A stretch of DNA of 64,000 nucleotides, from assembly GCA_964016885.1 (NCBI GenBank), contig OZ024742.1, forward strand, positions 136,090,001 through 136,154,000, read 5' to 3'. This stretch comes from Eledone cirrhosa (taxonomy: Eukaryota). The position numbers and the translations under genes were made by a program. The notes under the pieces are model-generated. The model did no database searches, was not told the DNA's origin, and saw only the letters and a program-made list of their open reading frames with translations. Of the stretch, positions 8,531 through 55,078 are shown in pieces (within the stretch, counting starts at the first letter, position 1; every line of letters begins with the position of its first letter).

Positions 8531-8570
8531 TTGTTAGAGCTTTCGGATTATAATCCTTCATCAGACTACA
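8531..8570 (-). ncRNA. Minimal hammerhead-ribozyme-like motif (Penelope pLTR type)
   Basis: Minus strand reads CTGATGA-A-GGAT TATA ATCC-GAAA-GC-TC: intact core and palindromic AGCT stem III, but weak stem I. Confidence 0.55.
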
Positions 8571-22327: not shown

Positions 22328-22710
22328 TCTTCCTTTACGCCCACTTATTCCTGAGAGGGTCGATGGGGCAGAGTCCTCAAGCAGTCCTTCCAGTGGGGCC
22401 TGTCAGAAGAAACCGTCTCCATCTGATCCGACTGGATCCCCAAGCGAAATCAGCCAAGCTCATGGATGTTATTCAGCCATCTTGCTCGGGGTCAACCAAT
22501 GGCACTTCTGTCGGTTGGATTTGTCCAGCAATTCTTTCCTGAGACATTCTAACTACATGTCCATAGTAACGGAGCTGTGATCCATCAATTCGGAGAAGTA
22601 GCGGCTCTACCTGGAATGACAAGATACGCATTCTATCGAGTAAGGTTACTCCAATGACCCTTAGATAAACCCTAATTCGGCCGCTTGTGTTAGCGATCGA
22701 ATTCTTTCAG
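22328..22710 (-). mobile_element. RTE-clade LINE 3' end with 3' UTR
   Basis: [19 protein letters not shown]...VEPLLLRIDGSQLRYYGHVVRMSQERIA...PRARWLNNI; same family as 16575-17075. Confidence 0.8.
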
Positions 22711-22726
22711 TCGTTACCCAAGATTT

Positions 22727-22767
<41 letters not shown>

Positions 22768-22803
22768 TGTACATATATTTATATATACATGTATATATAT
22801 ATA

Positions 22804-22864
<61 letters not shown>

Positions 22865-22868
<4 letters not shown>

Positions 22869-23058
22869 AACAAGTAGGACCCCGACGGCTGAGCTGAAGC
22901 CATTTCGACGGCTATTTCTGAGTCCAGAATTAGCCGTCGAAACGGCTTGAGCTCAGCCGTTGGGGTCCTACTTGTTCCTATTACCCACTCTACTACCCTA
23001 AGTATTGAGTACTTTGGTCTGTTATGGTCCATCTGGTTCCTTACCACATTTCCTTCGT
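22865..23058 (+). mobile_element. (TA)n-embedded hairpin mini-element (Penelope-like tail)
   Basis: 56-bp arms 22865-22920 and 22925-22980 (52/56 complementary), 4-nt loop, then ~80-nt tail with TTGAGTAC; paralogues at 25251 and 54612. Confidence 0.8.
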
Positions 23059-23255
23059 TATATATATATATATAGAGAGAGAGAGATACATATATGTAGG
23101 AGGTGAGTAATATTGTAGAACAATAAAACTATGCATATATCAGATAAGTAGCACTCGATAGTTGGTAGAACTGGTAACCATCTTTTAATTTCTTCATTAT
23201 ATATATACATATATATATATACCTACATATATACATGTGTATGTATATATTTATG

Positions 23256-25181: not shown

Positions 25182-25497
<316 letters not shown>

Positions 25498-54577: not shown

Positions 54578-54610
<33 letters not shown>
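52770..54610. repeat. ~1.8-kb TA/TATG/TG compound low-complexity tract
   Basis: Seen directly; interrupted at 53473-53570 and ~53765-53855. Confidence 0.95.
53473..53570 (-). mobile_element. TA-embedded short repeat, paralogue of 23720-23859
   Basis: Direct sequence match; carries the GAGTAC motif on the minus strand. Confidence 0.75.
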
Positions 54611-54611
<1 letters not shown>

Positions 54612-54799
54612 ACAAAGGAATTGTTGTAAAGAACCAGATGGACCATAACGCACCAGAGTACTCAATACTTAGGGTAGTAGAGTGGGAAACAGGAAAAAGT
54701 ATGACCCCGACGGCAGAGCTCAAGCCGTTTCGACGGCTATTTCCGGCCAGAAATAGCCGTCGAAATGGCTTGAACTCTGCCGTCGGGGTGATACTTTTT

Positions 54800-54802
<3 letters not shown>
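54612..54802 (-). mobile_element. Second full hairpin mini-element
   Basis: Hairpin 54691-54802 and tail aligned with 22865-23058; (TA)n on both sides. Confidence 0.85.
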
Positions 54803-54839
<37 letters not shown>

Positions 54840-54923
54840 TACGTTATTCTGGGTTGAATCGGAGGTAACCACAGTAAGTAAGGTACTCAATACATTGCAG
54901 AGTATAAAAGTTTTAATATAGAT

Positions 54924-55078
<155 letters not shown>

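Follow-up and report, generated by a model that had tools for sequence, protein, structure and literature searches.

The hairpin at 22865-23060 (+) of the 64,000-nucleotide stretch of Eledone cirrhosa DNA analyzed here (the window) belongs to no separate self-propagating family; an intact Hydra-clade Penelope-like element (PLE) of 3.53 kb gave rise to it as its shortest product. Parent positions are numbered with the A of AGTCC as +1, which puts the start of the open reading frame (ORF) at +232. Each hairpin is probably the shortest form of a head-to-head PLE insertion, in which the two target strands would prime cDNA synthesis at +60 and +140 and both cDNAs would run off a predicted capped RNA end at +1. 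Seen directly are the parent, both end points, a sharp +1 boundary, the skew towards an extra G, the variable centres and the concordance of the arms, while the priming of both strands is inferred by analogy and the joining of the cDNAs by host repair is likewise inferred.

The copy described in the first-pass annotation (copy A) consists of a tail-less left arm (22865-22920, -), which aligns to the intact element L145 as parent +60 to +5 inverted and ends at the inner end point, a right arm (22921-22980, +; parent +1 to +60, also from alignment to L145) and an 80-bp PLE “tail” (22981-23060, +; parent +61 to +140) lying between the two fixed end points, so that arms and tail represent contiguous parent bases +1 to +140. 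The left arm is likely a cDNA primed at +60, judging from this alignment, and the G at 22920 could be a cap copy or the last base of that arm. A (TA)n microsatellite (22731-22864) forms the left flank and is the likely insertion target. The 116-nt hairpin is real: its fold of -113.6 kcal/mol (z = -13.8) was equaled by none of 200 shuffles. The second copy (copy B; 54610-54803, -) is also real, inverted, and 87.7% identical to copy A over 195 nt of pairwise alignment. It combines an arm plus tail (54610-54746, -; parent +4 to +140) with a tail-less arm (54747-54803, +; parent +4 to +60), and belongs to another subfamily, with parents L165, L170 and L064. Alignment bore out the three arm-symmetric substitutions reported between the two copies, their common end points, the shared A-C mismatch and the GTC-GAAAC in the right arm. 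The centre said to be the same in both copies is so in position but not in letters, since copy A joins +5 to +1 and copy B +4 to +4. The inverted repeat stops 80 bp inside the element, so there is no terminal inverted repeat at both ends; the reported absence of terminal inverted repeats, Pol III boxes and a Helitron end agrees with our own judgment, made by eye only. Readings of the element as a Helitron, DIRS element, MITE or poly(A) SINE were dropped once the parent PLE was found.

A third, centre-deleted copy (copy C; about 25250-25388, +), beyond the pair given in the first-pass annotation, is older and of a third subfamily, and aligns to parent +29 to +140 with a degenerate short left arm. 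A DNA search of the 3.0-Gb genome with the element returned 2,634 candidates, and 39 of the 40 best hits were full or near-full length at 93-100% identity. By eye, TA repeats flank both ends of nearly all copies, and target duplications are unreadable within (TA)n. The TA runs of the window hold other repeats as well. Adjoining copy B, 54836-54972 (-) is the end of another PLE-type family, which has a canonical CTGATGA hammerhead motif and shares a short tail word with the family of the hairpin. Further hammerhead-like cores were matched by pattern at 8564 (-), 61847 (-) and 17884 (+), the last possibly by chance. A 400-bp insert between TA runs at 22330-22730 (-) resembles by eye the 3' end of an RTE-type LINE and has a relative in L037, and another short repeat between TA runs (23087-23200) is similar to one that flanks L119.

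A PLE sharing both arm and tail, the search for which had been proposed as a check, was found. Twenty evenly spaced 10-kb stretches gave four fragments of the family, one of which (L094) ran upstream into coding sequence, and pattern searches gave tandem arrays whose 3.53-kb unit carries an intact ORF of 717 aa. This ORF has YRDD and a C-terminal region with ...YIG; among its Atlas neighbours, at scores of 0.96-0.99, are GIY-YIG and RT (RVT_1) clusters, and a Pfam search of the 717 residues gave no hits. It carries DKT instead of DKG (SDKTGN), a CxCX5C linker (CNCPDRSIC) and, near the end, CxxC (CNLC) and CxH (CKH), with no CCHH by eye. With this motif set the parent would belong to the Hydra clade of C-terminal EN+ PLEs, which includes Hydra-1_Obim, as defined in the passages available from Craig et al. 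2021 (PMC8557442). It resembles that clade in its single ORF, DKT, CxCX5C and CxxC/CxH motifs, C-terminal GIY-YIG-type region, (TA)n target and putative hammerhead motif. It differs in its size, 3.53 kb with a 1.1-kb 3' UTR against generally less than 3 kb in those passages, in an N-terminal RWR at the place matching the Hydra-clade RWK, in a U3-A8 hammerhead core with a long stem II, and in having tens of thousands of copies, mostly stubs. Counted by eye, only 23 of the first 44 residues match Hydra-1_Obim, which makes the parent a different family. Four-unit head-to-tail arrays of the full element stand at L145 and L146 (C1:437.20-437.21 Mb and 91.47-91.49 Mb), and the near-identical intact ORFs of their translated units suggest recent activity and multi-turn copying. 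Genome-wide, exact motif matches number 57,641 for arms, 36,357 for tails and 5,042 for upstream ends, the last figure understating long copies because the upstream motif fits only some subfamilies. As an inverted arm without a tail lies opposite 28 of 40 tail-bearing arms, the 36,357 tails suggest, as a rough estimate, some 25,000 stubs or more.

The parent pseudo-LTR (pLTR) contains a putative type I hammerhead motif, modestly supported, at about -47 to +46. In favor of it, the stems are 83-93% paired in 18 variants, stem II has three compensated pairs and N7 is free to vary; the covariation score was reached by 7 of 500 shuffles. Against this, the other four measures were non-significant, the hammerhead fold has z values from -0.4 to -2.2, one of three sequences does not fold as a hammerhead, and Rfam gave no match in the window and nothing relevant in the parent. 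Among 46 parent ends the core is U3-A8 in 35 and C3-A8 in 6. A U3-A8 core is already known from Cercyon, a Schistosoma PLE, according to the passages at hand. The C3-A8 mismatch subfamily (L097, L113, L157 and others) is abundant, though cleavage is predicted to be crippled in it. The first-pass annotation had predicted CTGANGA upstream of GACGGCTA; this was not borne out, the core being the U3-A8 variant instead. Canonical cores at one spacing upstream of GACGGCTA gave 13 matches, by eye the coding sequence of another retroelement or unrelated, and those at the other spacing gave 1 match against 1 control. Copy A retains the 3' half of the motif (22929-22966, +), comprising the 3' strand of stem II, GAAA, stem III and the 3' strand of stem I, with a predicted cut after 22961, and no ribozyme can form there because the 5' half with the core is missing. 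Look-alike small hairpins follow both end points: a possible bulged one, seen by eye, just past the inner end point (22987-23010, + in copy A), and a second found only in tandem copies, in which the tail runs on into the 5' UTR and ORF. Only the outer of the two is the minimum-energy fold.

The 5' ends of the arms are concentrated at one point. Eighty-nine arms taken in listing order comprised 12 long ones, 3 breaking at -37 to -13, 60 at -6 to +8 and 14 at +11 to +27; among 93 tail-anchored arms, 7 were long, 1 broke at -16, 53 at -6 to +7 and 32 at +12 to +63. The two samples overlap in part and are first-listed matches from the first 21 Mb of contig C1, which, together with the exact motif requirement, favors young copies. 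Five of the 93 end at the predicted ribozyme cut (+42/43), where about 1.1 would be expected (p about 0.006; small numbers). The stop zone from -6 to +8 lies inside the predicted hammerhead stem II, at a site with the word TATTTAAA at -29 and TTAGTC/TCAGTC at +1, which we take to be TATA-like and Inr-like, respectively. PLE promoters are located in the pseudo-LTR in the passages available from two reports (PMC2377424, PMC3846280), and +1 is the predicted transcription start. Since +1 also lies near the tip of the long predicted stem II, cDNA synthesis may alternatively stall there for structural reasons.

The bases next to the boundary are consistent with copying of a cap. Parents carry T or C at -1. 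T, whether parental or due to an added A, remains the most frequent base at that position; of 30,992 exact matches, 7,011 have a purine there, with G:A at 89:11 among the first 100. In a control with stops at +4 to +6 the ratio of G to A was 13:17, compared with 14:3 for stops at +1. Inspection of 26 extra Gs showed that 8 may derive from the partner arm and 18 do not, although 3 of these 18 were classed by eye against a script label of “long”. A C added opposite the cap during copying would be the source of a copied-cap G. An excess of G over A before +1 is as expected for a copied cap, and the G would accordingly be read as such. The literature searched yielded no paper on the added C opposite the cap.

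Inverted insertions, which end at +60 and +140, form a size continuum of about 190 bp up to several kb, with the hairpins at its short end. We chose 18 long inverted pairs from the listing as opposite-strand neighbours: in every one of them, one end lies at +60/61 while the opposite end bears the tail, complete in 17 and partial in 1. Identity is 93-100% between the two arms of a pair and 72-99.6% to the reference, and the 5' breaks of the arms are independent, from -61 to -3367. Head-to-head inverted ends with a tail at one end only match the architecture of PLE inverted insertions. Self-priming is a published interpretation of PLE palindromes, in the passages available from PMC3846280, and one shared by the first-pass annotation; here a single cDNA would stall at the tip of stem II, fold back and prime its own second arm. 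The arm boundary near the predicted stem II apex and the concordance of the arms fit that account, but four of the 18 long pairs have the longer arm tail-less and the tail on the shorter one, and 10 of 49 tail-less arms face a mere tail fragment. Because the longer arm is tail-less or the tail fragmentary in these cases, neither arm can have been copied from the other unless a deletion followed. Moreover, the natural loop is seldom kept and some copies have the extra G on both arms. We therefore regard self-priming as unlikely. The proposed birth by fold-back at a ribozyme stem thus stands as to the presence of a hammerhead motif and a turn inside stem II, whereas the fold-back itself is disfavored relative to two separately primed cDNAs.

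The covariation of the arms had been read as a sign of selection or arm-to-arm repair, and the shared A-C mismatch as a sign of an inherited hairpin; neither reading was supported. We scored 125 of 138 hairpins (13 were dropped for gaps or overlapped centres), about 93 of the 138 having come from searches that favored a given centre, a given variant or resemblance to copy A. Per 48 nt, arms differ by 2.35 within copies and by 5.64 between copies, and site +35 is concordant between arms in 123 of the 125 (about 62% expected). The covarying alleles are, however, those of the parent subfamilies, and long palindromes covary alike; the arms covary because both copy the RNA of one subfamily. As a CpG transition, the A-C mismatch falls in the most frequent class of single-arm change in the set (70 of 278 single-arm changes, compared with 13 A>G and 24 T>C). 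No hairpin of the 125 had more than three same-type transitions between its arms and there was no A-to-G excess, so the DNA holds no fossil of A-to-I editing in this set. At parent +29 (window 22897), which is not a CpG site, a single-arm G-to-C change recurs, with 366 exact matches. A few hairpins (L205, L226) combine arms from two distinct subfamily types, which hints at a chimeric source or at two RNAs.

A non-autonomous hairpin master that spreads as a unit, its arms kept paired by selection or by arm-to-arm repair, could explain the fixed outer ends, the full length of nearly all the best hits, the arm covariation and the 1,058 genome matches of the centre of copy A. That centre, however, faces the tail in either orientation (13 against 14 of 30) and is spread over several subfamilies, and 32 copies from unbiased searches have 29 kinds of centre, often A/T runs or junk. 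The G-G mismatch of copy A at +29, in turn, sits on the tail arm in 12 and on the tail-less arm in 18 of 30 matches, and is unpaired in all 18 whose partner arm could be scored. Together with covarying alleles that are those of the parent, these observations largely refute a hairpin master, which we consider highly improbable. The proposal of a non-autonomous, Penelope-mobilised family is thus upheld in that a PLE has the same arm and tail, and fails in that the family shows no master. Given the variable centres, both orientations and a mismatch that is a CpG transition, neither inheritance nor arm repair is needed, and each stub was likely born anew from one RNA; arm conversion after insertion may have occurred in single copies. 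Just as improbable is that the stubs are leftovers of longer palindromes whose centres were lost later through palindrome instability, since this, despite the existence of long palindromes and of internal deletions in many copies, would yield neither the sharp +1 boundary common to all subfamilies nor the extra G or A-runs at +1.

According to our model of two separately primed cDNAs, both strands of a cut (TA)n target would prime copying of one PLE RNA. The cDNAs would start at the two fixed internal RNA sites, +60 and +140, and both would run off the predicted capped 5' end at +1; their ends would then be trimmed or padded and joined by host repair to give arm, centre, arm and tail. In about 8-13% of arms, copying continues past +1, which would take either a jump to a matching stretch (+1 to +41) at the RNA 3' end or a read-through tandem RNA, and such arms would account for the long copies, inverted as well as tandem. 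In short tandems, the template jumps arrive at +1, +4 and +41. The second look-alike hairpin leans weakly towards a full-length RNA, rather than a short RNA from solo ends, as the template. At L055-L058 (C1:27.009-27.010 Mb) a hairpin precedes additional turns of a unit of 257 bp that runs from +1 to the ORF start, and one jump junction appears there two times; this tandem, which also lacks the hammerhead core, could reflect a small circle or repeated template jumps.

LTR retroelements make minus-strand strong-stop DNA, which undergoes a first strand transfer. The hairpins are similar, by analogy and not by membership, in that copying would be primed close to the 5' end of the RNA, would run off at the cap and is predicted to jump via a terminal repeat; PLEs differ in being target-primed and two-ended, with no tRNA primer or integrase, and in an RNA 3' end that a ribozyme cut would generate. 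In the passages available on canonical PLE insertions (PMC8557442, PMC3846280, PMC2377424), head-to-head inverted ends, a one-sided tail and partial tandems are described as here; the tail there is 30-40 bp compared with 80 bp here, and breaks are scattered whereas these arms mostly break at one point. Those passages propose self-priming and name no run-off hot spot. For PAc, the Poseidon of Anolis, the parts consulted of Frangieh et al. 2024 (PMC11167929) describe cleavage and extension of both target strands in vitro, with two RT start sites bounding the tail. PAc shares with our element the AT-rich target, the extension of both strands and the two internal start sites around the tail, but it belongs to another clade and its start sites are in the ORF, here in the 5' UTR; those parts do not treat cDNA run-off or inverted joints. 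Non-LTR retrozymes, as described in passages of a preprint (bioRxiv 10.64898/2026.07.22.740005), are likewise PLE-derived, non-coding, hammerhead-related short sequences, but form direct tandems with whole ribozymes, whereas the stubs are inverted and core-less and show no master lineage.

The hairpins are thus real, PLE-derived products within known PLE architecture and do not constitute a new class of family. In the literature listings and passages covered, we found neither a run-off hot spot with a cap-like G nor the argument made here against self-priming. They likewise gave no description of hairpin stubs or of a PLE cap signature, and no paper was found that joins Penelope, strong-stop and pLTR. 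How PLEs come by their tandem and inverted ends is treated as an outstanding question in passages of PMC8557442, PMC3846280 and PMC11167929.

In conclusion, the stubs represent a large fossil record of a PLE intermediate and would locate the two priming sites and the 5' end of the RNA with single-base precision, while the intact ORF of 717 aa opens the model to testing in vitro. The stubs also carry a warning, in that arm covariation in repeats may arise when one template is copied twice and no selection acts on RNA structure. If transcribed within host genes, the hairpins would be a large potential pool of dsRNA. Going further, we suggest tentatively, and with slightly less than even confidence, that PLEs replicate via two strong-stop cDNAs, which are primed by both target strands close to the 5' end of one capped RNA, run off at the cap and have to jump to a terminal repeat, the 3' end of which the hammerhead cut would define; the pLTR would then be a working R region defined by the ribozyme, and failed jumps, the majority of events in this genome, would have left some 25,000 or more near-perfect 55-bp hairpins. 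If true, this reading would supplant self-priming as the explanation of how PLE inverted ends arise.
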